A DNA stretch of 64,000 nucleotides from Clostridia bacterium (GTDB taxonomy: Bacteria > Bacillota > Clostridia > Oscillospirales > Acutalibacteraceae): contig JAFQLV010000013.1 in assembly GCA_017396515.1 (NCBI GenBank), forward strand, positions 1,010 to 65,009. The letters run 5' to 3'. The position numbers were made by a program, and so were the translations under genes. Below, one piece after another: positions 8,678 through 61,538 of the stretch (position 1 is the stretch's first letter; every line of letters begins with the position of its first letter). Below the pieces are notes generated by a model, which worked only from the letters and a program-made list of their open reading frames with translations, had not been told where the DNA came from and did no database searches.

Positions 8678-8920
8678 ATGAAGCACACATATAAAACAAA
8701 GGGTGTTTGTGCCCAGCTCATAACCTTTGACCTTGAAGACGGCATAGTTTCAAACATCAAATTTCTCGGTGGCTGCTCAGGCAACACTCAGGGCGTGGCA
8801 ACACTTGCTGATGGCATGAAGGCTGAGGAGCTCGTTGCAAAGCTTTCGGGCATCCGTTGCGGCTTTAAGGGCACTTCCTGCCCCGACCAGCTTGCTAAGG
8901 CCGTTGCGAGCAAGATGTAA
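8678..8920 (+). CDS. TSCPD-domain small protein (TIGR03905-like)
   Basis: 80 aa with GGCSGNTQG and the literal TSCPD motif near the C-terminus. GGGAGG RBS and a consensus-like promoter lie upstream. Confidence 0.8.
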   Translation: MKHTYKTKGVCAQLITFDLEDGIVSNIKFLGGCSGNTQGVATLADGMKAEELVAKLSGIRCGFKGTSCPDQLAKAVASKM

Positions 8921-8922
8921 GC

Positions 8923-9083
8923 AATTATGAATGAGGAATTATGAATTATGAATTATGAATTGCGACTGAAATTCTGCTAAAGGATAATAGCTACACGCAG
9001 AGATAATGAAGCGTCAGCTTCATTTCATGACCATCAGGTCATTTCATGCACTCAGTGCATTTCATGCCGTCAGGCATTTCATC
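8923..9083 (+). repeat. Structured intergenic element E1: AATTATG array, GCGAC junction, CGCAGAG box and four tandem hairpins
   Basis: Array AATTATG AATGAGG AATTATG x3 AATT at 8923-8961. GCGACTGAAATTCTGCTAAAGGATAA is homologous to the left arm of copies A/B/C. Hairpins span 9006-9077. Confidence 0.8.
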
Positions 9084-9093
9084 AAAACAGCAA

Positions 9094-9123
9094 CCCGACA
9101 GAGCAATCTGCCGGGTTTTGTTG
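9094..9123. terminator. Bidirectional terminator between the TSCPD gene/E1 and the 444-aa secreted protein gene
   Basis: CCCGACAG-agcaat-CTGCCGGG with TTTTGTTG downstream and an A-rich tract upstream. Confidence 0.65.
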
Positions 9124-9133
9124 TATGTATTTA

Positions 9134-10426
9134 TCAATAGTGTGCCGCACCGCAAGCGCAGACTGCATTTTTCTTAAAGAGCTTCTGGAAGAAGAGAATA
9201 ATTTTGAAGAAGAAGGCTTTTATACCGCCTGCATGACAGTTGCAGGAGCAAGGCTCGGCAGGCTTTTCAAAAGTATAACCACAGCCGTAGTCGCATTTGT
9301 AGTCGCCGTTGGTGTCTTTGTGAGGCAGCTTATCAACACGGTCTGCCTCGTAAGCATCACCGCACTCGCAGGTGTAAACTGTGTAGCCGTATGTTGTGCA
9401 GGTGGGTGCATAGACCTTTGTCTTATAGTCGTGCTTGTGATTTAAATTATTGATATCATTAATTTTTAATGCAGGGCGAACACCGAACTCAAGTCCATCT
9501 ACCCAAAAACAGTTCGTATAGCCGGAATCTTCAATATACCAATTTTTAGCTGTATCAATACCCGGAGTACGAAGATGCCAAGGAGATCTTTGGTCATAGC
9601 CGTAAGCCGGACCGGCATCATAGACTCCCTGACACTCAGCATAATCGCTGCTTTGTGCAATTAGATTTACATGACTAACGAAACCAAAATCGCTGTTTTG
9701 TGTATCTTCATAAGACAGCAGAAATATTTTGTCTTTTGTTTCATTTCTGCTTTCTGCAGGTTCTCCAGAACATACAACATCGTTATTAAGGGTAGTAATG
9801 GAGATTTCTTTCTTTTCATTATCCGTAAAAGCCGTATTATAGAAATCATCATTGAGCCATTTTCTTATTGAGCTTGTTTCGTAATCATTTGCATAGTTTT
9901 CATAATCAGGGTCGTTGAAACAGATGTATGCACCGTCATCAGCTGTTTTAAAATAAGATGTGTTGCTGAAAGCCTGTGTGTCAATAATCGTTTCACACAA
10001 CACAAAACCTGTTTCAGGGTCAAGAACACGCCACTCAATAGGCTCAAACTTAAACCAATAGGTCATGTTGACAAAATAACCGTTATCATCTTGTCTTGTA
10101 AAACCACCATTTCTGTATTCTATAAATTTAACACCGCGATATTTATTGCCGCCATATTCTACATCGATATATCTCATCCAAGACATTTGCATTACCGCCC
10201 CATCGAGATCCCAATAATAGTCATAGCTTGTCCAGTTTTCCCACGCAGGTGCAAGTGCACCAAGCTCAGCTATCAAGGCAAAATCTTTGACCTCACTCTG
10301 CGGATATGAGCCGAACTGAATAATGTCGCCCACCTTATATTTACCACCCTCAGCATAAGCCATAGGCACTGTGCAGGCTATCATAATAACCGCTAACACC
10401 AGACTTAGTAACTTTTTTGATTTCAT
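9134..10426 (-). CDS. Secreted protein (DUF6273-like N-terminal region) with Cys-pair module and Cys-flanked hydrophobic C-terminal tail
   Basis: Signal peptide MKSKKLLSLVLAVIMIACTVPMAYA after an AGGAGG RBS. GDIIQFGSYPQ and IEWRVLD motifs are present. The tail is CSCNCHAGGIKAFFFKIILFFQKLFKKNAVCACGAAHY. Confidence 0.75.
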   Translation of the reverse strand: MKSKKLLSLVLAVIMIACTVPMAYAEGGKYKVGDIIQFGSYPQSEVKDFALIAELGALAPAWENWTSYDYYWDLDGAVMQMSWMRYIDVEYGGNKYRGVKFIEYRNGGFTRQDDNGYFVNMTYWFKFEPIEWRVLDPETGFVLCETIIDTQAFSNTSYFKTADDGAYICFNDPDYENYANDYETSSIRKWLNDDFYNTAFTDNEKKEISITTLNNDVVCSGEPAESRNETKDKIFLLSYEDTQNSDFGFVSHVNLIAQSSDYAECQGVYDAGPAYGYDQRSPWHLRTPGIDTAKNWYIEDSGYTNCFWVDGLEFGVRPALKINDINNLNHKHDYKTKVYAPTCTTYGYTVYTCECGDAYEADRVDKLPHKDTNGDYKCDYGCGYTFEKPAEPCSCNCHAGGIKAFFFKIILFFQKLFKKNAVCACGAAHY

Positions 10427-10450
10427 AAGAAAACCTCCTAATTTCTTTTG

Positions 10451-10493
10451 TGTAACAAAATGTAACATAATTATTGTAACAAACTGTTACAAT
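10451..10493. promoter_or_regulatory. TGTAACA repeat cluster (candidate XRE operator) in a divergent intergenic region
   Basis: TGTAACA at 10451, 10461 and 10475, with inverted TGTTACA at 10485. The last two form the palindrome ATTGTAACA-aac-TGTTACAAT (10473-10493). Confidence 0.5.
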
Positions 10494-10513
10494 AAAGTCA
10501 AGGGGTGTTTGTT

Positions 10514-10717
10514 ATGAAAGGGCTGAAAATTGTAAGAAAATCACGAAATCTGAACCAACAAAAGGTTGCTATGGATTTAAACATTTCACGTGAAGCTCTT
10601 TCTCACTATGAAAACGGCAAACGGGAACCAAGCCTCGATATGCTCAATAAATTATCAAAATATTTTAATGTTTCAATCGACTACCTCATTAACGGTGAAG
10701 AATTTAAAAAGCAGTAA
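10514..10717 (+). CDS. XRE-family helix-turn-helix transcriptional regulator
   Basis: The sequence QQKVAMDLNISREALSHYENGKREPSLDMLNKLSKYFNVSIDYL is a classic Cro/C1 HTH. Confidence 0.8.
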   Translation: MKGLKIVRKSRNLNQQKVAMDLNISREALSHYENGKREPSLDMLNKLSKYFNVSIDYLINGEEFKKQ

Positions 10718-10754
10718 CATCAACTTTACACTGATGCTACTGCTTTTAGTTTTT
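10710..10754 (+). terminator. Terminator of the XRE regulator gene
   Basis: AGCAGTA...TACTGCT stem followed by TTTTAGTTTTT. Confidence 0.6.
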
Positions 10755-10757
10755 ATC

Positions 10758-10877
10758 AATTATTCTTGACGGACCGTCGGGGACGCCGGTCCCTACGCAT
10801 TTACTCTGCGGAAAGACACTCCCCTTCTCGGCAGAGTACGACGCAATTCATAATTCATAATTCATACTTCATAATTA
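10758..10877 (-). repeat. Structured intergenic element E2: AATTATG-type array containing the mgtC stop, GCGTCG junction and CCGCAGAG box
   Basis: The plus strand reads ...CTCTGCGGAAAGAC...GCAGAGTACGACGC AATTCAT x3 ACTTCAT AATTA (array 10845-10877). Confidence 0.75.
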
Positions 10878-11597
10878 ATCAATATAAAGGTCTCTTATGC
10901 CCTCAAGGGCTCTGATTGCGGATATTGTCATGCTCAGGCTTTCCTCGTCCTTTGGCATAACAACTGCCTTCATAACAATTGAGTCGCTCTTGCGCTTGGT
11001 GGAGGCACTGTCGGCATAAAGCACCTCAAGGGTGTGCAGGTTGCCGCCGTACCGCTTGATGATTGCACCGATTTCAGCCGCCTGACGGGAAAGATTGTCA
11101 GCCTCAATATATATGTTTCTTGAGGGATTGCCCTTGGCAACAACACGCTTGAGAGTGTTAAGAGTTATGTAAATAACCAATGTGGTTACAAGTGCGCCCA
11201 CATAATAGCCTGCACCTACGGCAAGACCTATGCAGCTGACCGCCCAGAGAGATGCGGCTGTTGTCAGGCCCTTAACACTGAAGCCCTCACGCAGAATTGT
11301 GCCTGCACCGAGGAAACCGATGCCGCTGATAACCTGTGCACCGAGTCTTGTGGGGTCAACATTTACAAGTCCCTGATACTCCAAAAAAACATATTTCGAT
11401 GTCATCATAACAAGGGTTGAGCCTACGGCAACAAGAATGTGAGTTCTGAAGCCTGCAGGTCTGTGGGAATGCTCTCTCTCATAGCCGATAACACCGCTGA
11501 ATATAACGGCAAGCACCATTTTTATCACGGCATCAAGGGCATACTGCACGGAATCAACGGAATATAGCCCGATTAAAAAATCTTTTATCGCTTCCAT
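10875..11597 (-). CDS. mgtC: MgtC/SapB-family membrane protein
   Basis: GYEREHSHRPAGFRTHILVAVGSTLVM and the following TM pattern are typical of MgtC. AAAGGAG lies 8 nt before the ATG at 11597. Confidence 0.85.
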   Translation of the reverse strand: MEAIKDFLIGLYSVDSVQYALDAVIKMVLAVIFSGVIGYEREHSHRPAGFRTHILVAVGSTLVMMTSKYVFLEYQGLVNVDPTRLGAQVISGIGFLGAGTILREGFSVKGLTTAASLWAVSCIGLAVGAGYYVGALVTTLVIYITLNTLKRVVAKGNPSRNIYIEADNLSRQAAEIGAIIKRYGGNLHTLEVLYADSASTKRKSDSIVMKAVVMPKDEESLSMTISAIRALEGIRDLYID

Positions 11598-11763
11598 GCC
11601 ATCATCTCCTTTTATCATTATAACCAATATATTATATCACTTCTCTTGCAAAAAAGCAAATTTATTTTAATGTTTCTTACTTTTATCATTTTTGCTTGAT
11701 TATAAAGAATAACTGTTGTATAATAATAGTGTATATTCAGGAGCTGTGTATTTGTGATTTCTT

Positions 11764-11800
11764 AATTAATTCATAATTCATAATTCCTAATTCATAATTA
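11764..11800 (-). repeat. Solitary AATTCAT/AATTATG heptamer array upstream of zapA
   Basis: AATT AATTCAT AATTCAT AATTCCT AATTCAT AATTA. It is near-identical to the array at 46418-46452. Confidence 0.8.
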
Positions 11801-11818
11801 ATCGAAGGGAATGATACT

Positions 11819-12253
11819 ATGGCAGCAACAAAAGTTAAACTCTATATCGCAGGTGTGGAATATTCCATTATAACCGAAGACGATGTTAAATATGTTCAGG
11901 AGCTCGGCAGAGACCTTGACAGAACCATAACCAAAATTATGAAGGAAAGCCCACGACTTTCCACAACTCAGGCTGCAGTGCTTTCAGCTCTCAACTACGC
12001 TGATGAATGTAAGAAGGCTTCTGACTCTGCCGACCGTCTGCGTGAGCAGATCAAGGATTATCTTGACGATGCCTCAAATGCAAAGAGCAAGGCTGACTGG
12101 GCAAGACACGAGCTTGAAGAAGCAAAAAGACAGCTTGAAAGCCTCATTATTGAAAACGGCAGACTTAAAGCAGAGCTCGGCGCCGTTCTTGGCAATGTTG
12201 CCCCTGCTTCAAATATCAAGCCTATGAAGAAAAAGCCCGATGGCAATGCATAA
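11819..12253 (+). CDS. zapA: Cell division protein ZapA
   Basis: N-terminal KVKLYIAGVEYSIITEDD...YVQELGRDLD followed by a coiled-coil C-terminus. Confidence 0.8.
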   Translation: MAATKVKLYIAGVEYSIITEDDVKYVQELGRDLDRTITKIMKESPRLSTTQAAVLSALNYADECKKASDSADRLREQIKDYLDDASNAKSKADWARHELEEAKRQLESLIIENGRLKAELGAVLGNVAPASNIKPMKKKPDGNA

Positions 12254-14309
12254 GCCTGAAATACTTGCCCCGGCAGGCTCTTTCGATGCACTTGTTGCAG
12301 GAGTACGCTCAGGAGCAAATGCAGTTTATCTCGGCACCGGCAGCTTCAATGCCAGAATGAAAGCCGACAACTTTTCGGGCGAAGATCTGAAAAAAGCCAT
12401 TGACTATTGCCATGCAAGAGGCGTGAAGGTTCATATAACAATGAACACTCTTTTGCAGGACAGCGAGCTTTTGCAGGCTCTTGAAGTGGTAAAAGCAATT
12501 GCTTGTCTGGGCGCAGATGCAGTCATATTGCAGGATTTAGGTCTTGCTTCACTTATTAAAGAGTGCGCTCCCTCACTTGAAAGACACGCCTCAACCCAAA
12601 TGTCTGTGGGTACCCCCTCAGGTGTGGCCTTGCTGGAAAACCTCGGCTACCAAAGAGCAGTGCTTCCGAGGGAGCTGTCGAAAACTGAGATAAAAGAAAT
12701 AAAGAACTCTTCTGACATTGAAATTGAGATTTTTGTTCACGGCGCTCTTTGTATGTGCGTATCGGGTCAGTGCTATATGAGCAGCATTTTCGGTGGCAGA
12801 AGCGGCAACAGAGGTCTGTGTGCACAGCCCTGCCGACTCCCATTTGCAGTGGCAGGCGGCACAGGTCACGACCTGAGCCTTAAGGATTTATCTCTGACAG
12901 AATGTGCAGACGATATTCTCGGCATAGGCGTTGACTCACTTAAAATTGAGGGCAGAATGAAGCGCCCCGAATATGTGAGTGCTGCCGTAAGAAGCGTGAA
13001 GGCTTCACTCGAGGGCGAGCTAAGTGAGGAGCTGACAGAAAAGCTCCGAGCAGTTTTCTCCCGTTCAGGCTTCACTAAGGGATATTTTGAAAGCACCCTG
13101 GGCAGGGATATGTTCGGCATAAGACAAAAGGAGGATGTAACTGCCTCCACCAATAAGGTGCTCACTGAGCTGTCAAGGGCTTATGAAAAAGAAGTCCCCC
13201 TCATACCCACAGAGTTTTATCTCAGCATTATCGAGGGTGAAAAGATTTCTCTTTCAGCTTCGGCAATGGGCAAAACTGTTTTTGTTGAGGACGAAGCCAT
13301 ACCCGAAAAGGCACTGAACAAGCCCCTGACAAAAGAAGGACTCACTGAGAGAATAAGCAAATGCGGCGGCACACAGTTCTACGCCGAAAAAATAGAAATT
13401 GACCTTGATGATGGTCTTATAGTGCCTGCAAGCGTTATAAATAATCTGAGAAGGCAAGCTCTCATAGAGCTTGAAAAGAAGCTTACGAGTGTAAAGGTGA
13501 ACAGCTTTACATATAAAGAAATAAAAATCACTCCCCACGAAGCAAATAAGGAAATGAAATTCCATGTCCGGGTGGCTAAAAAGGAGCAGATTCCGAGAAA
13601 CCTTAAAAATGTTGAAAACTTATATTTACCCCTGAATATTGATGAAAATTCGGTGGAAAGCCTTAAAAACTCAGGTGTTAACATAGGTGTTGAGGTGCCC
13701 AGAGGCCTTTTCGGCAATGAAAAGGCTGTGGAAAAGCTGCTTCTCAGAGCCAAAGCTATGGGAATAAATATGGCTTACTGCTCAACCTTGGACGGTTTAG
13801 CCATTGCAAAAAGCCTCGGCTTTGACATTCACACAGGCTTTTCAATGAATGTGTCAAACAGCCTTTCCGTTGAGGCTTTAGAGAAGCTTGGTGTAAAGTC
13901 ATTGACCTTGTCACCAGAGCTCACCCTGAAGAAGCTTACGGCAATGGGCGGCAGAGTACCCAGAGGAATAATCGGCTTTGGCAGACTGCCCCTGATGCTG
14001 ACAAGGAACTGCCCCATAAAGAACGGCAAAACCTGCAGTGAATGTAAGGGCAGCTCATATCTTACAGACAGACTCGGCAAAAAATTTCCGGTTATGTGCA
14101 ATATGGGCTTTAGCGAAATTCTCAACTCGGCACCGGTCTATATGGCCGATCGCCTTGACGAAATTGAGAATATGGATTTCATCACCTTCTATTTCACAAA
14201 AGAAAAACAGGAGCTTTGCGAAGCCGTTCTTGATGCGTACCGCAAAGGTGCATCGCTCAGAGAAGGCTCCGCTTACACAAGAGGATTATATTACAGAGGT
14301 GCGGAATAA
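12240..14309 (+). CDS. Peptidase U32 family protein
   Basis: PEILAPAGS, LKIEGRMKRPEYV and a 689-aa length are typical of long U32 proteins. The start could be 12240 or 12246. Confidence 0.85.
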   Translation: MAMHKPEILAPAGSFDALVAGVRSGANAVYLGTGSFNARMKADNFSGEDLKKAIDYCHARGVKVHITMNTLLQDSELLQALEVVKAIACLGADAVILQDLGLASLIKECAPSLERHASTQMSVGTPSGVALLENLGYQRAVLPRELSKTEIKEIKNSSDIEIEIFVHGALCMCVSGQCYMSSIFGGRSGNRGLCAQPCRLPFAVAGGTGHDLSLKDLSLTECADDILGIGVDSLKIEGRMKRPEYVSAAVRSVKASLEGELSEELTEKLRAVFSRSGFTKGYFESTLGRDMFGIRQKEDVTASTNKVLTELSRAYEKEVPLIPTEFYLSIIEGEKISLSASAMGKTVFVEDEAIPEKALNKPLTKEGLTERISKCGGTQFYAEKIEIDLDDGLIVPASVINNLRRQALIELEKKLTSVKVNSFTYKEIKITPHEANKEMKFHVRVAKKEQIPRNLKNVENLYLPLNIDENSVESLKNSGVNIGVEVPRGLFGNEKAVEKLLLRAKAMGINMAYCSTLDGLAIAKSLGFDIHTGFSMNVSNSLSVEALEKLGVKSLTLSPELTLKKLTAMGGRVPRGIIGFGRLPLMLTRNCPIKNGKTCSECKGSSYLTDRLGKKFPVMCNMGFSEILNSAPVYMADRLDEIENMDFITFYFTKEKQELCEAVLDAYRKGASLREGSAYTRGLYYRGAE

Positions 14310-14335
14310 TCCGCATCGGAGAGGAAGAAAACACT

Positions 14336-14833: not shown

Positions 14834-14853
14834 TCAAAGCAGCAAGCCTTGAT

Positions 14854-15133
14854 AAAATGCAAAATTCAAAATTCAAAATGCAAAATTGCGGTCGCGGGCA
14901 CATTTCTGCCGATAAATAATCTTCTCCCGCAAAGTGAGTTGAGATAAAATACCAACTCACAAGATTATAAAAAATAAGGCAGGTCACTACCGATTTGGAA
15001 GTGACCTGCCGTTTGTTTTAAGATTGATAAGATTTGCCGTTTCTGAGCTTTATCTACGCGGAAAGAGTCTTAAGGTTAGTCAGTGGTAAAATCGCGACCA
15101 CAATTTTGCATTTTGAATTTTGCATTTTGCATT
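14854..15133 (+). repeat. Structured intergenic element, full copy A (AAAATGC arrays)
   Basis: Left array at 14854-14886 and TGCGGTCGCG at 14887-14896. CCCGCAAAG box, then terminator hairpin at 14978-15019 and GCGGAAAGAG box. CGCGACCACA at 15093-15102, followed by the inverted array to 15133. Confidence 0.9.
14978..15019 (+). terminator. Rho-independent terminator hairpin inside element A
   Basis: GGCAGGTCAC-13 nt-GTGACCTGCC followed by GTTTGTTTT. It lies downstream of dCMP deaminase. Confidence 0.7.
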
Positions 15134-15162
15134 AAAAAAGCGACTCCTCAGAGTCGCTTTTT
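15134..15162. terminator. Bidirectional terminator next to element A (serves the acidic zinc-ribbon gene)
   Basis: AAAAAA-GCGACTC-ctca-GAGTCGC-TTTTT. Confidence 0.8.
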
Positions 15163-15163
15163 A

Positions 15164-15607: not shown

Positions 15608-15654
15608 TATGTCCACATCCTTTTCTAAAGTGTTGTTAATAGTTTGGGGTTAGC

Positions 15655-16417: not shown

Positions 16418-17269
16418 GTGATTACAATAAAAAAGCTTATTTGTGTTTTAGCCTTTCTGTCGGTACTGCTTACATTCTGTGCTTGCACAAAGGAAGACTC
16501 CCCGCATATAACCGCTGCGCCTGAGGAAACAACCACAACAAAATCTCTTACGGTGAGAGTGACCTTCCCCGAGGGTCTGACCCTTGTGCAGATTGCAGAA
16601 AAATTAGAGGAAAGCGAAGTCTGCAATGCCTCACGCTTTATAGCGTTGACAAACGATATGACTTATATTCAGACACTCCCCTACTCTTTTATAAATGAAA
16701 TTGAAAACAGACAGGAAAGGGCATTTATCCTTGAGGGATATATCTTCCCCGACACCTATGAGTTTTATCGCGGTGAAAGCGAAGAAAAAGCTCTCTCCCG
16801 CTTTCTTGACAACACAGAACGAAAGCTGACGGCAGAGTACAGACAAAGAGCCGCAGAGCTTGGCTACAGCCTTGATGAAATTATCACTCTTGCCTCAATT
16901 GTGCAGGAGGAGTCTTACACCAATGACAGTGTTAAAAATGTCTCAAGCGTCCTTCACAACAGGCTTCGCAGCCCCTCTTTTCCGCGCCTTCAGTGTGATG
17001 TTACCATTCACTATGTCAACGATTATATCACCGACTCGAAATTTCTCAGTGCCACTGACGGCTATGCCGAAAAATACAACACCTACAAGTGTGAGGGCTT
17101 GCCCGTCGGTGCAATTTGCAACCCGGGCCTCGCTTCAATTGAGGCTGCCCTTTACCCTGCCGAGACGGATTATTACTACTTTGTAACAGACAGCGATTGG
17201 GATTATTATTATGCCTCGACCTATGCAGAGCACAAGAAAAACTGCAATGCAGTGGGACTTGCGGGTTAA
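16418..17269 (+). CDS. mltG: Endolytic murein transglycosylase MltG (YceG-like)
   Basis: N-terminal TM segment, EGYIFPDTYEF, LASIVQEE and YNTY..GLP.G.I.NPG motifs. The start codon is uncertain (GTG at 16418). Confidence 0.85.
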   Translation: MITIKKLICVLAFLSVLLTFCACTKEDSPHITAAPEETTTTKSLTVRVTFPEGLTLVQIAEKLEESEVCNASRFIALTNDMTYIQTLPYSFINEIENRQERAFILEGYIFPDTYEFYRGESEEKALSRFLDNTERKLTAEYRQRAAELGYSLDEIITLASIVQEESYTNDSVKNVSSVLHNRLRSPSFPRLQCDVTIHYVNDYITDSKFLSATDGYAEKYNTYKCEGLPVGAICNPGLASIEAALYPAETDYYYFVTDSDWDYYYASTYAEHKKNCNAVGLAG

Positions 17270-17299
17270 TTATGAATTATGAATGAGGAATTATGAATG
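17268..17299 (+). repeat. AATTATG heptamer array forming the mltG/GNAT intercistronic junction
   Basis: AATTATG AATTATG AATGAGG AATTATG AATG overlaps the TAA stop at 17267-17269, GAGGAA at 17285-17290 and the ATG at 17297. Confidence 0.8.
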
Positions 17300-17758
17300 A
17301 TAACTGCTATGAATATTTCTGCCACAAAGGCTATATGCTCGTGGAAATATCCTGAGCCATATGATGTTTATAATTATGTGTCTTTTGACGAGGCGGTGAA
17401 AAACAATTCGCCTTTACTTAAAGACGAAAACAAAGATAATTACATCTGCTTTTGGGATAATGAAACCCTCTCGGCATATATTAACATCTATAAAAAGGAT
17501 GAAAATGTTTTTCTCGGTATAGGTCTTTCACCTGATTTATGCAGCAAAGGATTTGGTGAAGCTTATTTAAGACAAGGCATTGAAACAGCTAAAAGCCGTT
17601 ATCCCAAAAGTGAAATATGGGTAGAAGTACGCTCTTGGAACAAGAGGGCAATTAAATGCTATGAGAGCTGCGGATTTAAAGAAGAGTATAGAAAAATTAT
17701 TAAAGACCGATTCGGAAATGATGCGGAATTTGTTTTTATGAGATGGGAGAAAAAATGA
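17297..17758 (+). CDS. GNAT-family N-acetyltransferase
   Basis: 153 aa. The GFGEAYLRQGIE segment fits the acetyl-CoA motif. The RBS GAGGAA lies inside the heptamer array upstream. Confidence 0.75.
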   Translation: MITAMNISATKAICSWKYPEPYDVYNYVSFDEAVKNNSPLLKDENKDNYICFWDNETLSAYINIYKKDENVFLGIGLSPDLCSKGFGEAYLRQGIETAKSRYPKSEIWVEVRSWNKRAIKCYESCGFKEEYRKIIKDRFGNDAEFVFMRWEKK

Positions 17759-18270
17759 ATAAGGTAATCGTAATCGGATGTCCCGGTTCAGGCAAAACAA
17801 CCTTTGCAGAAAAACTGAATAAATGCACAGGATTACCATTATATTATCTCGATGCAATATGGCACAAGCCCGACAAAACTCACATTCCCAGAGAAGCTTT
17901 TGATGAAAGAATATCAGAAATATTTGCTACTCCCCAATGGATAATTGACGGAAATTACAAAAGAACAATCGAAGTAAGGCTTCAGCACTGCGACACCGTT
18001 TTTCTTTTTGATTTGCCTACAGACATATGTTTGCACGGTGCAACAGGAAGAATCGGAAAAACTCGTTACGACCTACCTTGGTTAGAAACAGAATTAGACC
18101 CTGAATTCAAAGTGTTTATAGAAACCTTCCCCGAAGATACCTTGCCTTATATATATGAATTGCTTGATAGATATAAAGAGGGAAAACAAGTTGTAATCTT
18201 CAAGTCAAGAGAAGAAGCGGACGAATATATAAACAAAATGAGGTGCAAAAATGAAGATAATTGTTTTTAA
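17755..18270 (+). CDS. P-loop NTPase (adenylate-kinase-like / topology-modulation-protein-like)
   Basis: MNKVIVIGCPGSGKTTFAEKL Walker A motif. ATGA start/stop overlap with the preceding gene. Confidence 0.8.
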   Translation: MNKVIVIGCPGSGKTTFAEKLNKCTGLPLYYLDAIWHKPDKTHIPREAFDERISEIFATPQWIIDGNYKRTIEVRLQHCDTVFLFDLPTDICLHGATGRIGKTRYDLPWLETELDPEFKVFIETFPEDTLPYIYELLDRYKEGKQVVIFKSREEADEYINKMRCKNEDNCF

Positions 18271-18685
18271 AGAAAAATATCGTGATGACCTTATTTTTAT
18301 GATTCTTGAAGCCAAAAATGCCCTCGGCAGAGTGCCGGGACTTAACGAAGATTTGCTTGATATTAAAAAGAATTATTTTGATAAAGGTGATATGTTCTGG
18401 ATTGCTCTTGATGATAATGACAGAGTTATAGGCAGTGTGGGTTATAATTCCACTGAGAACAGCGATGATGTTTTGCTTCACAGGCTTTTTGTAAAGTATA
18501 GCCTAAAACATCAGGGTATAGGTACTGCACTTTTGAAAACTGCAGAAGAACATCTGAAAGCTATAGGCAAAAAGACTGTCATTGTGCATCTCGGTAACAA
18601 AGAGCATTTTTATGAAAGCTGGCAGTTTTATCCGAAACACGGTTATAAAGAGTTTGAACCGGACTATATGAGAAAAGTGCTATAA
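18251..18685 (+). CDS. GNAT-family N-acetyltransferase
   Basis: LFVKYSLKHQGIGTALLKTAEEHL matches the R/Q-x-x-G-x-G/A motif. Confidence 0.8.
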   Translation: MKIIVFKEKYRDDLIFMILEAKNALGRVPGLNEDLLDIKKNYFDKGDMFWIALDDNDRVIGSVGYNSTENSDDVLLHRLFVKYSLKHQGIGTALLKTAEEHLKAIGKKTVIVHLGNKEHFYESWQFYPKHGYKEFEPDYMRKVL

Positions 18686-18688
18686 ATA

Positions 18689-18874
18689 ATGTTTTTAAAT
18701 TACCGTAATAAAGGTTTTGGTACAGCCCTTATGAATTCTGCCAAAGATTGGGCAAAAGAGCAAGGTTGCAGTTTTATAAATCTTGATGTTCTCACAAACA
18801 ACCCAAAGGCTATATCATTATATGAAAGACTTGGCTTTACACCCAAGGCACAGGAAATGTATTGTAAATTTTAA
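18689..18874 (+). pseudogene. GNAT acetyltransferase fragment (C-terminal half only)
   Basis: The 61-aa ORF starts at the acetyl-CoA motif (YRNKGFGTALMNSAKDWAKEQG) and has no N-terminal half. Stops lie immediately upstream in frame. Confidence 0.5.
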
Positions 18875-18894
18875 TCCCTATATTGAAACAAATT

Positions 18895-18929
18895 AACCGC
18901 CCGAAAAAATTCGGACGGTTATTTTTTTT
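18895..18929 (+). terminator. Terminator of the GNAT/P-loop gene cluster
   Basis: AACCGCCCGA-aaaaaa-TCGGACGGTT followed by a T8 run. Confidence 0.8.
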
Positions 18930-18996
18930 ATTATTGCAGGGCTCTGCCCCGCACCCCGCAAGCTTTTATAAAAGCTTGACCAAAATTTTGCTGCTT

Positions 18997-19914
18997 TTAT
19001 CCGAACAAATTCACACTCATATATCTTTCGCCGCTGTCGGGGAGCAGGACAACTATCTTCTTGCCCTCATTTTCGGGTCTATGTGCAATTTCTGTTGCCG
19101 CTTTTAATGCCGCACCTGAAGAAATGCCCACAAGCAGTCCCTCTGTTTCAGCAAATGCCCTGCATGCTCTGAAAGCATCGGCAGTGCGTACCGTAACAAC
19201 CTCATCAACCACACTCATGTCGAGATTATCAGGAATAAAGTTGGCACCTATTCCCTGAATACCGTGAGGCCCTGCTTTACCCTTTGTGATAAGAGGCGAA
19301 TCAAAAGGCTCAATGCCTATAACCTTTATAGTGGGATTTTTCTCCTTGAGATATCTGCCCGTACCGCTGAGAGTGCCGCCGGTGCCTATTGAGGCGACAA
19401 AAATGTCAACCTCGCCATTCATATCATCCCATATTTCGGGGCCCGTAGTGAGTGTATGCGCTTCAGGGTTATCCGGGTTATCAAACTGTGAGGGTATGAA
19501 GGAATTGGGAGTTTTATCACACAGCTCTTTAGCCTTTTCAATTGAGCCGAGCATACCCTTTGCGCCCTCTGTCAGCACTATATCAGCACCGTAGGCCTTC
19601 AGAAGCTTCTGCCTTTCCACGCTCATGGTGTCGGGCATAACAAGCACAGCCTTATAGCCAAGGGACACTGCCGCAGCGGCAAGACCTATACCCGTGTTGC
19701 CGCTTGTGGGCTCAATTATTGTTGCACCCTCAGTGATAAGACCCTTAGCTCTTGCCTTTTCAAGCATATTAACAGCCACCCTGTCTTTCACAGAGCCTGC
19801 CGGGTTAAAGCATTCCAGCTTGGCATAAAGCTCCGAAGGCAACCCCTTGCCGAAGGCGTTGAGCTTCATTAAGGGTGTGTTGCCCACAAGCTGACAAAAA
19901 TTATTATAAATCAT
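18997..19914 (-). CDS. cysK: Cysteine synthase A (O-acetylserine sulfhydrylase)
   Basis: LVGNTPLMKL, the PLP-lysine motif NPAGSVKDR and GTGGT. The ATG at 19914 (MIYNN) is preferred over the TTG at 19932. Confidence 0.9.
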   Translation of the reverse strand: MIYNNFCQLVGNTPLMKLNAFGKGLPSELYAKLECFNPAGSVKDRVAVNMLEKARAKGLITEGATIIEPTSGNTGIGLAAAAVSLGYKAVLVMPDTMSVERQKLLKAYGADIVLTEGAKGMLGSIEKAKELCDKTPNSFIPSQFDNPDNPEAHTLTTGPEIWDDMNGEVDIFVASIGTGGTLSGTGRYLKEKNPTIKVIGIEPFDSPLITKGKAGPHGIQGIGANFIPDNLDMSVVDEVVTVRTADAFRACRAFAETEGLLVGISSGAALKAATEIAHRPENEGKKIVVLLPDSGERYMSVNLFG

Positions 19915-19918
19915 AAAA

Positions 19919-20374: not shown

Positions 20375-20389
20375 AGTTTTTACCTCACT

Positions 20390-22003: not shown

Positions 22004-22043
22004 AATATGCACCTCTTTCATTAATATATCATAAGAAAAACGC

Positions 22044-29805: not shown

Positions 29806-30139
29806 AATGCAAAATGCTAAAAAAATGCAAAATGCAAAATTGTGGTCGCGGGGAATTTTCTGCTGATAAGTAGTTTTCTCCCGCAAAAGGAGTGGGGACG
29901 AGATGGTAAGTCTGTAGATTATAATCCTCATCCGTCACTGCGTGACACCTTCCCCTTAACTCAAGGGGAAGGTATAAATAAGGCAGGTCACTACAAGTTT
30001 TCAGTAGTGACCTGCCGTTTGTTTTAAGATTGATGAGATTTGCCTCCTCTGAGCTTCATCTATGCGGAAAGAGGCTTAAGGTTAGTGGGCGGTGAAATCG
30101 CGACCACAATTTTGCATTTTGCATTTAGCATTTTGCATT
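29806..30139 (+). repeat. Structured intergenic element, full copy B (AAAATGC arrays, extra internal hairpins)
   Basis: TGTGGTCGCG at 29841-29850 and CGCGACCACA at 30099-30108. Terminator hairpin at 29982-30025. A 71-nt block (30011-30081) is identical to the reverse complement of 56692-56762. Confidence 0.9.
29982..30025 (+). terminator. Rho-independent terminator hairpin inside element B
   Basis: GGCAGGTCACTAC-9 nt-GTAGTGACCTGCC followed by GTTTGTTTT. Confidence 0.75.
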
Positions 30140-30143: not shown

Positions 30144-31870
30144 TTACCATCCGAAGCCGAAGTATTCGTTGAAGAAATCCTCAAAGCTGCTTGCACCGCC
30201 GTAGTAGTAATCGTTGCCGCCTGAAGGCATAGTTGTTGTTTCCTCCTGCTGTGACGAGCCCTTATCCTCAACGAGGGTGATTGTCACATCAAAGGTTTTG
30301 GTTTTATAGGTACGGTTATCAACTCTGCAAAGGGTGAGAGTGAGGGTGTCACCAACTGCACCTGTGTCAATAAGGTCAAGAAGCACGCTGGAATCGTCCA
30401 TATCCTTGCCGTTGACTGCTATAATAAGGTCGCCTACCTGTGCATCTGTATCCTTAAGTGAGCTGTCCTGAGAAATGCCTGCAATTACAAGTGATCCCTG
30501 AGGAAGACCCTTAATGGAAACAACAAGTGAATAAAGCTGATATGCACTTACGGGTGCATACTCAATGCCCAGCTTAGGTCTGTTAGGCACATATTTATAC
30601 TGAATGAGTGCATCTACAACAGGCACCGCAATTGATGTCGGCACCGCAAAGCCCATGCCCTCATACTCGGTTGAGGCTATCTTTGAGGAGTTGATGCCCA
30701 CTATCTGACCTGCCATATTGACCAGTGCACCGCCCGAGTTGCCCGGATTAATGGCAGCACTGTGCTGAATACAGGTCATTGTATAGGTTGCATCCACACT
30801 TCTGTCAATGGCTGAAACTATGCCGTCAGTAATTGAGCCGAAGAAGGCTGCACCGCCCGGGTTGCCGATAGCATAAATGGGCTCGCCTATTTTAAGCGCA
30901 GAGGAATCGCCTATTCGGCAAGAGGAAGTCCTGTTTCCTTAATTTTGAGCACACCTATATCTGTTCTGGTGTCACTTGCCACCATCTCTGCCTCAAAGCT
31001 TTTGCCGTTTTCAAGAAGCACACCGTAGGTGACACCGCTTTCGTTAATAACATGGGCACAGGTGACAACATAGGTATATTTGCCTGTTTCATCTGTTGCC
31101 CAGAGAACGCCCGAGCCTTCACCGTAAAGCTGACCGTTTTTATAGGTCATAACACCCACAACACTGGGACGAACCTTTTCAGCTATAACAATTGAATTAA
31201 TCTGTGACAGCTCCTCACTGCCCTGTGTGGTTCCGATTATGGGCTTGATTGTTGTGGGAGCTTCTGTGGTTGAAGTGTTTGCATCGGTTTTTCCCACATC
31301 GGGAGCACCGCCCGTAAACGCATTGACAATTGCAATAACAGCTATAACAATGCATGCCGCCACTATGCCTAAGGCAATCTTTTTACCGCTACCCTTCTTT
31401 TTGGGAGGCATATTGTTGCCCACCTGATAGTATGAATAATTCTGCTGTTGCTGATTAAAGGGAGGGGTCTGACCGTAGTGATTGAACTGCTGCGTGTTGT
31501 TAGGTGCAGCATAAGGGTTGAATGAAGGAGGTGTTTCTTTTGAGTCTGTCACCCTTTGGGCACCCACAGGCTCTGCCTTTACACTTTCCTGCTTGTTTCC
31601 TGCATCGGCATAAGAATTATACTCCTGCTGATTTGCACCATCGGAATAAGGGTTGTAATCGGAATAAACGCCTTGTTCGCCCTCTTTGAAATATCCCTCG
31701 TAATTCTTTGCATCTTCACCTGAAAAGCTTATTTCCTCACCTGAAACATTAGGGTCAGAAAAAATATCCGTGCTTTCATGAGCCTTAGCTTCATCTGCAG
31801 TGTCAGGGGCAATACCCTCGCTGTGCTCAGGCTCCTGTGAAGGATTGTAGTTTGTTTCGTTATCGTTCAT
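30144..31870 (-). pseudogene. htrA: HtrA/DegP-type serine protease with PDZ domain, split by a 1-nt frameshift near 30909-30913
   Basis: The upstream ORF ends ...DIGVLKIKETGLPLAE-TAG. The next frame continues GDSSALKIGEPIYAIGNPGG...INPGNSGGALV plus a PDZ domain. Only 2 nt (TA) separate the GAA and GGC codons. Confidence 0.75.
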
Positions 31871-56015: not shown

Positions 56016-56569
56016 ATTAGTTCCTCGCTTTCTAAGTGTTCCTTCAGCTTCATTCGCTGACGGTAAAGAATGGATGCCACCTTACTTTCGCTCACGGAAA
56101 AATCTCTTGCTATATCGCTTATTGAAGAGCAGTACCAATAGCGCCTGAGGAAAATATTTCTCTTTTCGGTACTCTGCCGTCTGAGAAAGTCTTCAATTGA
56201 TTTTAAAAGAAGCTTCTCATCAAGTGAGTCCTCCACCCTCATTTGTGAGGGTATACAGCCTTCAAGCTCTGAGAAAACTATATCTGCGGTGCTGCCGCCT
56301 CTTTTTTCGGCAGAGTACAGCTTATAGCGGTTTATGGCAAGACCTCTCGTTATCCTGCCGAGATAAGTGCGAAGGTTCGACGGCTCCTTAGGCGGTATAG
56401 AGTTCCACGCACGAAGGTATGTATCGTTGACACACTCCTCGCTGTCCTGCTGATTGCACAGAATGTTGTGAGCTATGCACTTGCAGTAGGCACCGTATTT
56501 GATATTGGTTTCGTCAATGGCTTTTTCCGAGCGGGCAAAGTAAAGCTTTATGATATCGATATCTTTCAT
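56012..56569 (-). CDS. ECF-type RNA polymerase sigma factor
   Basis: Sigma-70 region 2/4 pattern. AAAGGAGG lies 6 nt before the ATG at 56569 (MKDIDI). Confidence 0.8.
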   Translation of the reverse strand: MKDIDIIKLYFARSEKAIDETNIKYGAYCKCIAHNILCNQQDSEECVNDTYLRAWNSIPPKEPSNLRTYLGRITRGLAINRYKLYSAEKRGGSTADIVFSELEGCIPSQMRVEDSLDEKLLLKSIEDFLRRQSTEKRNIFLRRYWYCSSISDIARDFSVSESKVASILYRQRMKLKEHLESEELI

Positions 56570-56633
56570 ATCTATCCTCCTTTCACTTATATACACCGCA
56601 AATCTTTAAAAAAATTGCAATTTTTTTAAAGAT

Positions 56634-56910
56634 AATGCAAAATGCTAAATGCAAAATGCAAAATTACGGTCGCGACTCCACCACCCGCTGACCTTAAGCC
56701 TCTTTCCGCATAGATGAAGCTCAGAGGAGGCAAATCTCATCAATCTTAAAACAAACGGCAGGTCACTTCCAATTCGGTAGCGACCTGCTGATGCATTATA
56801 ATCTACAGAGTGGGAATTTCATCCCCACTCCCTTTGCGGGAGAGGATTGCTTATCAGTAGAAATGTGCCCGCGACCACAATTTTGCATTTTGCATTTAGC
56901 ATTCTGCATT
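56634..56910 (-). repeat. Structured intergenic element, full copy C (inverted relative to A and B)
   Basis: The reverse complement aligns end to end with A/B. GGTCGCG at 56668-56674, CGCGACCACA at 56870-56879, hairpin at 56757-56788. Confidence 0.9.
56748..56788 (-). terminator. Terminator hairpin inside element C (slightly degenerate stem)
   Basis: The minus strand reads GCAGGTCGCTACCGAATTGGAAGTGACCTGCC followed by GTTTGTTTT. It lies downstream of ridA. Confidence 0.6.
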
Positions 56911-56913
56911 TAA

Positions 56914-57288
56914 TCACACGATTGCAACTGCTTCCACTTCACAAAGCACACCCTTGGGAAGTGCCTTAACGGCCACACAGCTTCTTGCAGGTGCTGAGGT
57001 GATATATTTGGCATAAACCTCATTGAAAGCTGCGAAATCGCCCATATCGGCAATAAAACAGGTGGTCTTGACCACATTGTCAAAGCTTGTTCCCGCCTCT
57101 TCAAGAACAGCTTTAAGGTTAACCATAACCTGCTCTGTCTGAGCAGTGATGCCCTCAGCATCAACATTGCCTGTAGCAGGATTAATGGGAATCTGTCCCG
57201 ATGTAAAAAGAAAGCCGTTTGCCATTATAGCCTGTGAATAGGGGCCGATAGCAGCAGGTGCCTTGTCTGTTGAAATCTTTTTTAGCAT
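56914..57288 (-). CDS. ridA: RidA-family reactive-intermediate deaminase
   Basis: 124 aa with APAAIGPYSQA, GQIP and the RSCVAV...LPKGVLCEVEA pattern. Confidence 0.85.
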   Translation of the reverse strand: MLKKISTDKAPAAIGPYSQAIMANGFLFTSGQIPINPATGNVDAEGITAQTEQVMVNLKAVLEEAGTSFDNVVKTTCFIADMGDFAAFNEVYAKYITSAPARSCVAVKALPKGVLCEVEAVAIV

Positions 57289-57301
57289 AGTAAATTCTCC
57301 T

Positions 57302-58483
57302 TTATTTGAAAGATTTTATAAACTGCTGTGCAGCTCTGGGCGAACGAGAGCCCTTTGCAAGAGCAAATGCCTCTGCCTTAAGGTAAAGCTCTTTTTCGTC
57401 AATGTTGAGCCTTTCCTTTTTAGCCAGCTCGTGAACGATGTCAAGATAGAGCTTTTTGTTAGGCTTTGAGAAGTACACAACAAGACCGAAGCGGTCGGAA
57501 AGCGAAAGCAGCTCCTGAACCGTGTCACTGTGGTGAATATCGTCCTCGTGGCCTCTCTCAGAGAATCGCTCCTTGACAATATGTCTGCGGTTGCTTGTGG
57601 CATAAATAACGGCATTTGATGCCTTGGCGCTTGCCGAGCCTTCCAGAGCCGCCTTAAGCATTGAGAAGCAGTCATCGTTTTTGTTGAAGGAAAGGTCGTC
57701 GATAAAGATAATGAACTTCAGGGGGTTATCGGCAATTCTGCCCATAATATGCGAAAGGGAGAAAAGCTGATCCTTGCGAACTTCAATAAGTCTCACGCCC
57801 TTATCAAAGCAGGCATTTGCCACAGCTTTGACAGTGGAGGACTTACCCGTACCCGCATCACCGCAGAGAAGCACATTCTGTGCGTACCTGCCCTCAGTGA
57901 GTGCAAGGGTGTTATCCATAACCTGCTGTCTTTCTGCCTCATAGCCGATAAAGCTTTCGGTGGTGATATCGTCGGCAGCCTCAACGGGAACGATCTCATC
58001 CTTTTCCACTCTGAACATACCTGCCGTGGCAAAAATGCCATAGCCGTAGCGGTGAATATGGCTGAGTCTTTCTTTGTACACTGCCGAAAAGTCTACTTTT
58101 TCGTTTTCAAACAGAGGGATATATCCCTCATAGTCCGTATCTTCAAAAAGGCTTTCTGCTGTCAGAGACGTAAGGGAAGAAAATATATCAAGCTCCTTTT
58201 CTGCATTAGCCTTAAGTGAAGCGGACACCTCTTTATTTTTAGCCACAGAGGTAATATAAGTATTTTCATCCTCACACACTGCCTTGGTTAAAAAGGCTGA
58301 AAACGAGCCGCCGTATGCACCGAGAGAGCTGACAAACTCACCGTAAAAGCTGAGCTTTTCATATATATCCTCACTTCTGAGGAAGTTAAGGAAGGCCGTC
58401 ATTTCTTTTTTGTCTGTCAGCCCTCTGAAAACACTCAGAGCCGAGAGCTGACAGGCAAGTAATTTTAAATCTGTCTTTTTCAT
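57302..58483 (-). CDS. AAA-type ATP-binding protein (DUF815-like)
   Basis: Walker A motif LCGDAGTGKSS and Walker B motif FIIFIDDLSF. Confidence 0.7.
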   Translation of the reverse strand: MKKTDLKLLACQLSALSVFRGLTDKKEMTAFLNFLRSEDIYEKLSFYGEFVSSLGAYGGSFSAFLTKAVCEDENTYITSVAKNKEVSASLKANAEKELDIFSSLTSLTAESLFEDTDYEGYIPLFENEKVDFSAVYKERLSHIHRYGYGIFATAGMFRVEKDEIVPVEAADDITTESFIGYEAERQQVMDNTLALTEGRYAQNVLLCGDAGTGKSSTVKAVANACFDKGVRLIEVRKDQLFSLSHIMGRIADNPLKFIIFIDDLSFNKNDDCFSMLKAALEGSASAKASNAVIYATSNRRHIVKERFSERGHEDDIHHSDTVQELLSLSDRFGLVVYFSKPNKKLYLDIVHELAKKERLNIDEKELYLKAEAFALAKGSRSPRAAQQFIKSFK

Positions 58484-58487
58484 AATA

Positions 58488-60152
58488 TCAGAACTTGTTG
58501 ATAATTGCGCCCTTGTCAGCTGAGCTTACCATTGCGGCATAACGGGCAAGATAACCTCTCACATCGGTCTTGACCTTAATAGGCATTTCCTGCTTACGCC
58601 TCTCAATTTCCTCATCGCTGACCTTGAGTTCAATTTTATATTCGGGAATGTTGATTGAAATTATGTCTCCGTCCTTGACATAGGCAATAAGTCCGCCTCT
58701 GACAGCTTCAGGTGATACGTGACCTATGGATGCACCTCTTGTTGCACCTGAGAATCTGCCGTCTGTGATAAGAGCAACATCCTTGTCAAGACCCATACCT
58801 GCAATAGCTGAGGTGGGTGAAAGCATTTCTCTCATGCCGGGGCCGCCTGAGGGGCCTTCATAGCGGATAACAACCACATCACCCTTGACAATTTTGCCGC
58901 CGTATATAGCTGCGATGCATTCCTCTTCACTGTCAAAAACCTTGGCAGGACCTTCGTGAATAAGCATTTCGGGAGCCACTGCACTTCTCTTGACAACACA
59001 GCCGTCAGGGGCAATATTACCTCTGAGCACAGCTATGCCGCCTGTTTTTGAATAGGGGTTATCTACTGTTCTTATAACAGTTTCATCCTTGTTGAAGGCA
59101 TTTTCGATGTTTTCGCCTAAGGTCTTACCTGTACAGGTCATAACACTTGTGTCAAGAAGACCCAGCTTTGCAATTTCTCTGAGTACGGCATAAACACCGC
59201 CTGCTTCGTTAAGGTCTTCCATATAGGTGTGACCTGCAGGTGCAAGGTGGCAGATGTTAGGTGTTTTTTCGCTTATTTCGTTTGCCATATCAAGGTTGAA
59301 GTCAATACCGCATTCATTTGCAATAGCAGGCAGATGAAGCATACTGTTGGTGCTGCAGCCTATAGCCATATCGGCAGTTACGGCATTTCTCATAGCAGCC
59401 TCAGTCATAATGTCACGGGGACGGATATTCTTTTTGACAAGCTCCATAATCTGCATACCTGCGTGCTTTGCAAGCTCAATTCTTGCCGAATAAACAGCAG
59501 GAATGGTACCGTTGCCCTGAAGGCCCATGCCCAGCACCTCTGTCAGACAGTTCATTGAGTTAGCGGTGTACATACCTGAGCATGAGCCGCAGGTGGGGCA
59601 GGTGTTTTCCTCGCATATGCGAAGCTGCTCATCATCAATTTTGCCTGCAGTGTAAGCGCCTACTGCCTCAAACATACTTGAAAGGCTTGTCTTTTTGCCG
59701 TCAACTCTGCCTGCAAGCATAGGGCCGCCTGAAACGAAAATAGTGGGGATATTGAGTCTTGCCGCAGCCATAAGAAGACCGGGCACATTTTTATCGCAGT
59801 TGGGAATCATAACAAGGCCGTCAAAGCCGTGAGCCATAACCATAGCCTCAGTTGAATCGGCAATAAGGTCTCTTGTTACAAGTGAATACTTCATACCGGT
59901 GTGGCCCATGGCAATGCCGTCACAGACTGTAATTGCAGGGAAAACTATAGGAGTACCGCCTGCCATAGCAACGCCAAGCTTGACCGCATCGGCAATTTTA
60001 TCAAGATTTATGTGACCGGGCACTATCTCATTGAATGAGCTGACAATACCGATAAGAGGGCGTGACTGCTCCTCTTTTGTCATGCCCAGAGCGTGATAGA
60101 GACTGCGGTGAGGGGCATTGTGAAATCCGTCGACTATTGTGTCTTTTATCAT
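58488..60152 (-). CDS. ilvD: Dihydroxy-acid dehydratase
   Basis: [19 protein letters not shown] and PNCDKNVPG motifs. AAGGAG lies 9 nt before the ATG at 60152. Confidence 0.95.
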
Positions 60153-60199
60153 TGAAAGCATCTCCTTAAAATTAAAGTAGCGGTGGAGTAAAAAGTCAA

Positions 60200-60458
60200 G
60201 AGTGAGGAGTGAGGAGTTAGGAGTTAGTAGTTAGGAGTTAGGAGTTAGGAGTTGTGGTCGCGGGTTAACTCTATACTAACCTTAAACTCGTTGCCGCAAG
60301 CACAAAACTCGCAAGCGGAAAATTCCGTCGATCATAAAATGTGCTTTTAAATTGCATTATTTTGGCGGAATATAGGGTTCGTTTAAATAAGTTTAAAACG
60401 GATATAATCGGAGCGAAGCGACCCTTAACTCCTAACTCCTAACTCCAAACTCCTAACT
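60200..60458 (-). repeat. Variant element D with GGAGTTA/TAACTCC arrays between ilvC and ilvD
   Basis: GAGTGAG x2 and GAGTTAG-type x5 at 60200-60252. TGTGGTCGCGGG at 60253-60264. The CTAACCTTAA segment is shared with A/B/C. GCGACCC then TTAACTCC TAACTCC TAACTCC AAACTCC TAACT to 60458. Confidence 0.8.
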
Positions 60459-60500
60459 TATTAAAGCTGCTGCACAAACGCACAGCAGCCCTGCAAATTC

Positions 60501-61538
<1,038 letters not shown>

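Follow-up and report, generated by a model that had tools for sequence, protein, structure and literature searches.

The 64,000 nucleotides (nt) analyzed here (positions 1,010 to 65,009, forward strand, of contig JAFQLV010000013.1 in the Acutalibacteraceae assembly GCA_017396515.1; hereafter, the window) pose a simple question: why do nine of ten short repeat loci, designated E1 to E10, lie at or just behind a stop codon? The initial annotation had read these nine as starting behind a stop in the orientation of the upstream gene, and had proposed either targeted insertion or a portable terminator. Checked against the sequence, the list of open reading frames (ORFs) and a list of period-7 arrays, all ten loci and all nine stop codons were found where they had been placed, and the closeness of the elements to stops is real (gaps of 0-20 nt, and 42 nt for ilvC). 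[quoted passage not shown] In the best reading of our analysis, such a repeat would be tolerated, and sometimes co-opted as a terminator, at gene 3′ ends; the placement bias itself is the known pattern of bacterial interspersed repeats, and no new mechanism is needed.

The evidence for a single family lies in its anatomy. Full copies measure 265-335 bp and, going by the window ORF list, no ORF of at least 80 amino acids (aa) lies wholly within any copy. E4, E6, and E9 share a core (core A) at 83-95% identity, all within 64 kb, so that the census of the window comes to three full copies, one partial copy (E8), and one divergent relative (E10). A full copy is a pseudo-palindrome: read inward from either end, a heptad array is followed by AATTGYGGTCGCG and, ~35 nt further in, by a box of the form CCGCRNAG. 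From the outside in, the layout is a TA, three to eight heptads of the pattern A-R-T, the 13-bp inverted repeat AATTGYGGTCGCG, a sub-terminal stem, and a central GC-rich hairpin. In the window, the 13-mer has eight matches at up to two mismatches (2.1 expected), which occur as inverted pairs, and it is present on both strands at each full copy. In E4, E6, E9, and E10, both ends bear arrays and AATTGYGGTCGCG repeats in inverted orientation, and the 41-nt terminal arms of E4 and E9 are 93-95% complementary. Asymmetry is confined to the middle, where the central hairpin, GGCAGGTCAC...GTGACCTGCC, has a GC-rich stem of 10-12 bp and T-runs on both strands (GTTTGTTTT on one, TTATTTTTT or TTATTTAT on the other); the hairpin followed by GTTTGTTTT is kept in all nine aligned core-A copies. 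As RNA, E4 is predicted to fold into a single long hairpin (-115.6 kcal/mol, z = -12.3). The family displays three of the traits by which MITEs are recognized, namely a length below ~500 bp without coding capacity, terminal inverted repeats, and dispersed, strain-variable copies. The ten loci are as follows.

E1, 8921-9117, plus strand: left end of the TSCPD-mgtC cassette; AATTATG array 8923-8961, junction AATTGCG 8958-8964, box CACGCAGAG 8994-9002, three mini-hairpins with a CATTTCATG spacer 9021-9082, and a terminator-like hairpin 9092-9117.
E2, 10780-10877, minus strand: right end of the TSCPD-mgtC cassette; AATTATG array on the minus strand from 10877 to 10845, with the mgtC stop codon inside it, followed by AATTGCG, a TACTCTGC...GCAGAGTA stem, and a GGGACCGGCGTCCC hairpin.
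E3, 11767-11801, minus strand: array only (11767-11799), without junction or box.
E4, 14854-15133, plus strand: full core-A element; arrays 14854-14886 and 15103-15133, inverted repeats 14884-14896 and 15093-15105, central hairpin 14978-15010, then GTTTGTTTT; between convergent genes (stops 14831-33 and 15164-66), with a separate native hairpin at 15135-15162.
E5, 17268-17300, plus strand: AATTATG array overlapping two features, the mltG stop (17267-69) and, at 17297, the first ATG of the following ORF.
E6, 29806-30139, plus strand: full core-A element; arrays 29806-29840 and 30109-30139, inverted repeats 29838-29850 and 30099-30111, central hairpin 29982-30016, and an extra internal insert of ~50 nt.
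E7, 46337-46452, minus strand: short paired element of 116 bp with arrays at 46337-46368 and 46418-46449; an AATTATG array flush with the stop at 46453-55, then AATTGCAGG, GCCGCAGAG, and, at 46337-46368, an inverted AGTGCAG-type array.
E8, 54806-54898, plus strand: partial core-A copy without arrays; CCCGCAAAG box, hairpin 54861-54889, then ATTTATTTT; between convergent genes (stops 54803-05 and 54921-23).
E9, 56634-56911, minus strand: full core-A element in a tandem junction; arrays 56634-56664 and 56880-56911.
E10, 60194-60458, minus strand: divergent relative with GGAGTTA arrays at 60200-60253 and 60426-60458.

E2 is an inverted repeat of E1 (89% complementary). E3 has its outer TAA end 17 nt upstream of the start codon of zapA, and at the same site the related contig L023 (contigs used for comparison carry L numbers) has a complete module, consisting of an AATTCGG array, AATTGCGGGG, and CGCCGCAG. 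E10 is without a central hairpin or T-run, occupies the interval from the native ilvC hairpin to the start of ilvD, and has an orientation read from one homologous block of ~50 nt. For the neighboring genes, Pfam matches on the same proteins in related contigs back TSCPD, MgtC, dCMP deaminase, YceG/MltG, peptidase M14, RidA, and KARI/IlvC; the Pfam search returned no match for the ‘lipase-like’ protein and the 642-aa protein. Mini-hairpin arrays of the kind seen in E1 (9021-9082) also occur in L016 (2944-3118), L017 (2132-2326), and L174 (1277-1500): between one short stem and the next lies a constant spacer of 7-9 nt (CATTTCATG; in another Clostridia species, TGAATTG), and the stems change in sequence from unit to unit while their complementarity is kept.

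How close the elements lie to coding sequence can be stated gene by gene. The gap from stop to element is 2 nt for the TSCPD gene, 20 nt for the dCMP deaminase gene, 7 nt for the M14 peptidase gene, 0 nt for the genes of the 642-aa and 577-aa proteins, and 2 nt for ridA (a TGA, then TTAA); at mgtC and mltG stop and element overlap, and the 42 nt behind ilvC hold that gene's own hairpin. The stops of the TSCPD gene, mgtC, and ilvC are at 8918-20, 10875-77, and 60501-03. Arrays begin 0-7 nt from a stop codon at seven of the ten stop-facing ends in the window. Elements occupy five of eight convergent junctions, as against four of 43 tandem and one of eight divergent ones (5/8 convergent versus 5/51 others, Fisher p = 0.002). 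E6 fills the entire spacer of a convergent gene pair (stops 29796-98 and 30144-46), core-A copies in two other metagenome-assembled genomes (MAGs; L003 and L004) likewise fill convergent spacers from stop to stop, and E9 extends from 2 nt past the ridA stop (TGA, 56914-16) to 37 nt before the start of a sigma-70-family gene (56596). Such precision could reflect an enzyme that homes on stop codons, on the first TA that follows them, or on terminators and that inserts in a single orientation with respect to transcription, much as class C group II introns insert behind intrinsic terminators. We regard this explanation as unlikely. The proximity of the seven ends speaks for it, but subtraction of the elements leaves implied spacers of only ~11 nt (E6), 39 nt (E9), 50 nt (E4), and 74 nt (E10), and therefore any tolerated insertion would fall near a stop codon. 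Array modules also abut start codons, namely that of mgtC in L024/L025 and that of zapA in the window and L023.

The outermost bases of the arrays bear on the same issue. The outer boundary is TAA in 29 of 32 distinct contexts, as against 20% at random positions, and in our reading of the listed flanks, 22 of 24 outer ends have a TA beside them, compared with a TA frequency of 6% in the same loci. TTAA as the duplicated target was rejected, since it fits only about half of the ends. In keeping with stop-codon targeting, several stop codons consist of a T plus the first AA of the array, and behind the TGA stops of ridA and the M14 peptidase gene the element starts at the first downstream TA. 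Yet TA or TAA also stands at ends turned toward a start codon, toward a native hairpin, or toward another element, and at ends where no gene terminates, as in E3, on the left side of both E9 and E10, and in the nested L004 and L036 copies. The TA/TAA is therefore part of the element end or of its target and not merely the stop codon of a gene.

The orientation rule fares less well than the proximity. The initial annotation counted nine concordant loci of nine, an outcome expected about once in 512 under random orientation, but only two or three of these loci are informative (p ≥ 0.125). Five of the nine (E1, E2, E4, E6, and E8) lie between convergent genes, E2 having been set as convergent by hand on account of an adjacent small helix-turn-helix (HTH) gene on the plus strand, and they are uninformative because any orientation counts as concordant there. 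The order of array, junction, box, and hairpin cannot orient E4, E6, E9, or E10 because it is the same from either side, and E1 and E2 are not independent because their arrays are an inverted pair bounding one TSCPD-mgtC gene block. What remains is E5 (a single array), E9, and, doubtfully, E10, for which three of three concordant gives p = 0.125. The rule is thus largely a by-product of geometry and not a property of insertion: because both ends of an element have arrays, any copy lodged between two gene ends will start after a stop in the upstream orientation.

Related strains and species were compared across ~40 contigs, collected through exact-protein look-ups in ENA, Logan, and NCBI MAGs, the last of these labelled Acutalibacteraceae. 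Behind the dCMP deaminase gene, the core-A element is forward in the window, L022, L027, L028, and L030 and reversed in L023, L024, L026, and L029, which argues against both a targeting enzyme with a fixed orientation and an orientation under selection, while the E9 element is in the ridA sense in all strains seen. The copies are variable in other ways. Heptad number ranges from one to eight among strains at one site; the left end is duplicated in L036, and other small elements are nested inside copies in L004 and L027; dissimilar elements occupy the ridA and ilvC-ilvD sites in some strains (L013/L016); and between a DUF815 gene and ridA, an insert of ~170 nt takes the place of the last two codons, bringing a stop codon of its own. 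Metagenome contigs of related strains often end inside elements, as expected of a dispersed repeat. Two further differences were observed. An element of ~100 nt with CGATAA...TTATCCG ends and three small hairpins lies inside the heptad array after mgtC in L027 (6400-6530) and is absent from the otherwise near-identical L024. In the trypsin/PDZ protease gene (30144-31870, minus strand), an A-run has lost 1 nt compared with L035 (GCCGAAATAGG to GCCGAATAGG, at 30797-30911), a deletion that splits a 575-aa ORF in two; this is either a pseudogene or an assembly error.

A second explanation is that the host keeps the elements mainly as portable terminators or stabilizers of 3′ untranslated regions, with their orientation under selection. 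Judged from its sequence, the central hairpin resembles a two-way intrinsic terminator, and such a role is plausible at some sites: the GC-rich stem is flanked by the T-runs GTTTGTTTT and TTATTTTTT or TTATTTAT; at E6, L003, and L004, the element makes up the whole convergent spacer and its hairpin is the only one between the two genes; and E8 retains the hairpin despite the loss of its arrays. Host selection as the principal cause nevertheless seems rather doubtful to us. E4 and E10 adjoin native hairpins, E10 itself has neither hairpin nor T-run, orientation at the E4 site flips among strains, and arrays or modules at 5′ ends cannot terminate the adjacent gene. Moreover, with T-runs on both strands, a terminator role would need no single orientation. 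Of the two mechanisms put forward in the initial annotation, parts of each are supported, by the hairpin with its T-runs, the enrichment at 3′ ends, and TA/TAA ends able to serve as a stop codon; the strict orientation on which they were premised is not.

The heptads themselves follow a rule of their own. In the register of the junction, all of them start with A-R-T (AATTATG, AATGCAA, AATGCAG, AGTTAGG, AGTGAGG, AATTCGG, AATGAAT), and the junction ARTTGYG is one further A-R-T unit. Units differ among copies of the same core (AAAATGC, AGAATGC, GGAGTGA), so that the A-R-T phase is constant while the other four positions differ among copies. Heptads as stacked excision footprints were considered and rejected, as footprints of the form TA-NNN-TA would give a 5-nt period.

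Arrays of this type extend far beyond the window. A metagenome pattern search for at least three AAT-type heptads ending in AATTGYG found heptad arrays in at least 120 contigs of 28-67% GC, which hold at least 238 period-7 arrays. Among the contigs and matches listed, to which all the metagenome figures below refer, 42 of 125 matched arrays (34%) have the stop of a long ORF (250 codons or more) from -40 to +10 nt of an end, as against 3% of random segments from the same contigs. The A-R-T strand continues the coding strand in 31 cases and opposes it in 11, and for stops that precede the array the ratio is 12 to 3; in-array stop codons therefore cannot explain the polarity. In these independent arrays, proximity to stops thus reappears, while the preference for one polarity is weaker than had been claimed for the window; both figures favor stop-codon targeting. 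The idea that a hairpin follows every metagenome array was rejected, the mean folding energy being -8.1 kcal/mol beside arrays and -9.4 kcal/mol in random segments. In some of these contigs (L044-L163), AT-rich arrays surround GC-rich cores in GC-rich DNA, for instance in L060 and L062. The spread of arrays across 28-67% GC suggests either horizontal transfer or a shared binding factor.

The latter alternative would make the heptad arrays binding sites, with one protein unit per 7 nt, in a regulatory or RNA-processing network and not selfish DNA; a cold-shock-domain protein (acting on RNA or single-stranded DNA) or a ribbon-helix-helix (RHH) protein (acting on DNA) would be candidates. RHH proteins bind tandem heptads on plasmids. 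The constant A-R-T phase amid four variable positions and the occurrence of same-type arrays in so many metagenome contigs are consistent with such sites, as are similar arrays in Beggiatoaceae, cyanobacteria, and Bacteroidetes, described in a paper that cites heptamer binding by CspB (PMC4679880), and arrays in Geobacter metallireducens described as ‘global regulator binding sites’ (PMC2700814). However, unit number and sequence vary among strains at one site, no candidate protein is linked to the arrays, the metagenome set shows no excess of hairpins beside them, and arrays also occur inside ORFs, all of which leave this explanation quite improbable in our judgment. Two side observations touch on it. 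A 64-aa ORF with a weak RHH_1 match is expected at ~48652-48846 (plus strand) of the window, between the M20 peptidase gene and the 642-aa gene, by mapping from L032. MiaB-like radical-SAM ORFs from different organisms (L046, 1-1392, and L120, 1215-2570) carry in-frame AATTCAA arrays, which encode peptide inserts of the KIQNSKFKIQN type.

Arrays also bracket genes. The content of the E1-E2 block (window 8921-10877; L022-L029) varies by strain among a DUF6273 gene with an HTH gene, a sigma-70-family gene with a 275-aa gene, a RicinB lectin gene with an HTH gene, and none, the last in L023, where a 211-nt spacer is gene-free. E5 forms the left boundary of a second strain-variable block, from mltG to the PALP gene (window 17268-18997; L023 7203-8672; L029), with GNAT acetyltransferases, radical SAM and NUDIX genes, or GNATs with ParE/Phd as its variants; in L023, an inverted array ends this block, its TAA doubling as the PALP stop codon. 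In four independent places, inverted repeat arrays stand on both sides of genes of the PF05635 family (‘23S rRNA intervening sequence protein’, a four-helix bundle), and in this lineage such a cassette replaces E10 between ilvC and ilvD:

L013, 6500-7140: PF05635 cassette at the E10 site.
L164, 1348-1958: PF05635 cassette at the E10 site.
L063, 83-529: PF05635 cassette.
L130, 777-1263: PF05635 cassette.
L157, 201-1529: PF05635 cassette.

Many PF05635 homologues are found on short contigs (0.5-2 kb), as though assembly-breaking repeats bounded them. One could extend these observations to the idea that TA-bounded A-R-T arrays are the ends of widespread mobile cassettes at stops and convergent junctions, with contents ranging from a hairpin to several genes and with PF05635 as a recurrent, possibly cognate passenger; we hold this to be very unlikely.

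Returning to a MITE-like repeat as the preferred explanation, its history might run as follows. A transposase acting in trans would move the elements into TA dinucleotides. Since the element starts with A, a copy landing within a TAA or TAG stop, or directly behind one, would rebuild a TAA and leave the gene intact. Copies would persist where they are harmless, that is, a few bases behind stops and above all in very short convergent spacers, where the hairpin may also serve as a two-way terminator. Several results weigh against this account. Neither the window nor the ~40 related loci contain a full-length insertion sequence (IS) with the same ends and a transposase, no transposase or other protein family recurs near the arrays at the 120 metagenome loci listed, and we know of no IS family that has heptad arrays as a feature. 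Some single modules are without an inverted partner and cannot be simple transposon ends. A TA duplication would be suggested by the flanks alone; no clean empty site was found among the related strains for any array-flanked element, and the sole filled/empty pair, L017 versus L018, is not a clean insertion. As to the terminator, a consensus scan returned only a partial reverse-strand site in the E4 central hairpin, because the hairpin loop and one mismatch exceed the limits of the scan. Among the nine core-A copies, the covariation term is -0.24 kcal/mol and five of 60 pairs show a double change, which gives no reason to postulate a selected RNA fold on top of the DNA palindrome, and the native hairpins beside E4 and E10 mean that a terminator role is not needed there.

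Comparable placement is known from other small repeats. In Streptococcus pneumoniae, SPRITE, BOX, and RUP are small, non-coding, structured dispersed repeats that are significantly over-represented between convergent genes and insert into one another (Croucher et al. 2011, PMC3049150). With its long stem and U-rich tract, SPRITE lies near the 3′ ends of coding sequences and was proposed to be a co-opted terminator, its placement being attributed by the same authors to tolerance of insertions downstream of genes (PMC3049150; review PMC10969869). The window elements share with SPRITE the enrichment between convergent genes and the closeness to coding-sequence 3′ ends. Unlike SPRITE, BOX, and RUP, they carry tandem heptad arrays and AATTGYGGTCGCG in a host of a different order; SPRITE ends simply in AAAA/TTTT, and a comparison by eye alone finds no sequence likeness to any of the three. 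Correia elements of Neisseria and other TA-duplicating MITEs of the IS630/Tc1-mariner group have terminal inverted repeats, a flanking TA, and a length of about 100-300 bp, are co-transcribed with their neighbors, and form long hairpins; Correia ends are unique repeats of 26 bp. Here, by contrast, arrays form the ends, a TA duplication is inferred from the flanks, and a cognate IS was not found in the loci searched. REP/BIME sequences of enterobacteria are extragenic palindromes in mosaic clusters, concentrated at operon 3′ ends and in convergent gaps, that act as mRNA stabilizers or attenuators; REPs are hairpins of 20-40 nt with a conserved GTAG head, mobilized by RAYT transposases. The units described here are larger and differently built, and no GTAG head or RAYT gene was seen in the window and flanks.

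The arrays have closer counterparts. Tandem heptanucleotide repeats include the STRR of cyanobacteria. TAACTGA heptamer arrays occur in Beggiatoaceae, cyanobacteria, and Bacteroidetes, beside ORF boundaries and in some cases over stops, and were left unexplained (PMC4679880), and Geobacter metallireducens has palindromic sites of five MTYCTGA units (PMC2700814). These repeats from distant phyla are, like those described here, intergenic arrays of two to eight heptamers within a few bases of ORF boundaries, and the reverse complements of TAACTGA (AGTTATC) and ATTCTGA (AATTCAG) both match the A-R-T unit. STRR/TAACTGA-type arrays sometimes overlap stops because the unit has stops in all frames. 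The Beggiatoa TAACTGA arrays are mostly single direct arrays just upstream of starts, whereas those of the window form inverted pairs and mostly face stops.

Searches for the element itself returned little. A pattern scan for the left half of core A over 185,579 species representatives gave seven matches, of which only two, both in Acutalibacteraceae MAGs, were judged genuine, these being the ones inspected; core A is rare. The 22-mer of the hairpin region had no match in JGI metagenomes, two scans of viral contigs gave four matches (the three inspected looked like chance), and a distant blastn search of E4 against a plasmid collection found none. Rfam had no match at the gathering score or at E ≤ 0.05, and at E ≤ 1 only three weak matches far below threshold. 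A full-text literature search with the array sequences found no paper. The palindromic family with TA-bounded heptad-array ends appears undescribed.

In this lineage of gut Clostridia, the heptad arrays are the terminal parts of a palindromic, strain-variable element, which links them to the unexplained heptanucleotide repeats of other bacteria. Arrays of the same type touch stops ten times above chance in more than 100 unrelated metagenome contigs. Together these observations offer an idea for the old heptad puzzle, that the arrays may be the ends of mobile DNA able to supply stop codons, and the Acutalibacteraceae MAGs provide a defined setting for testing it. In practical terms, short-read assemblies break at such repeats, which can also displace the start and stop codons that are annotated.

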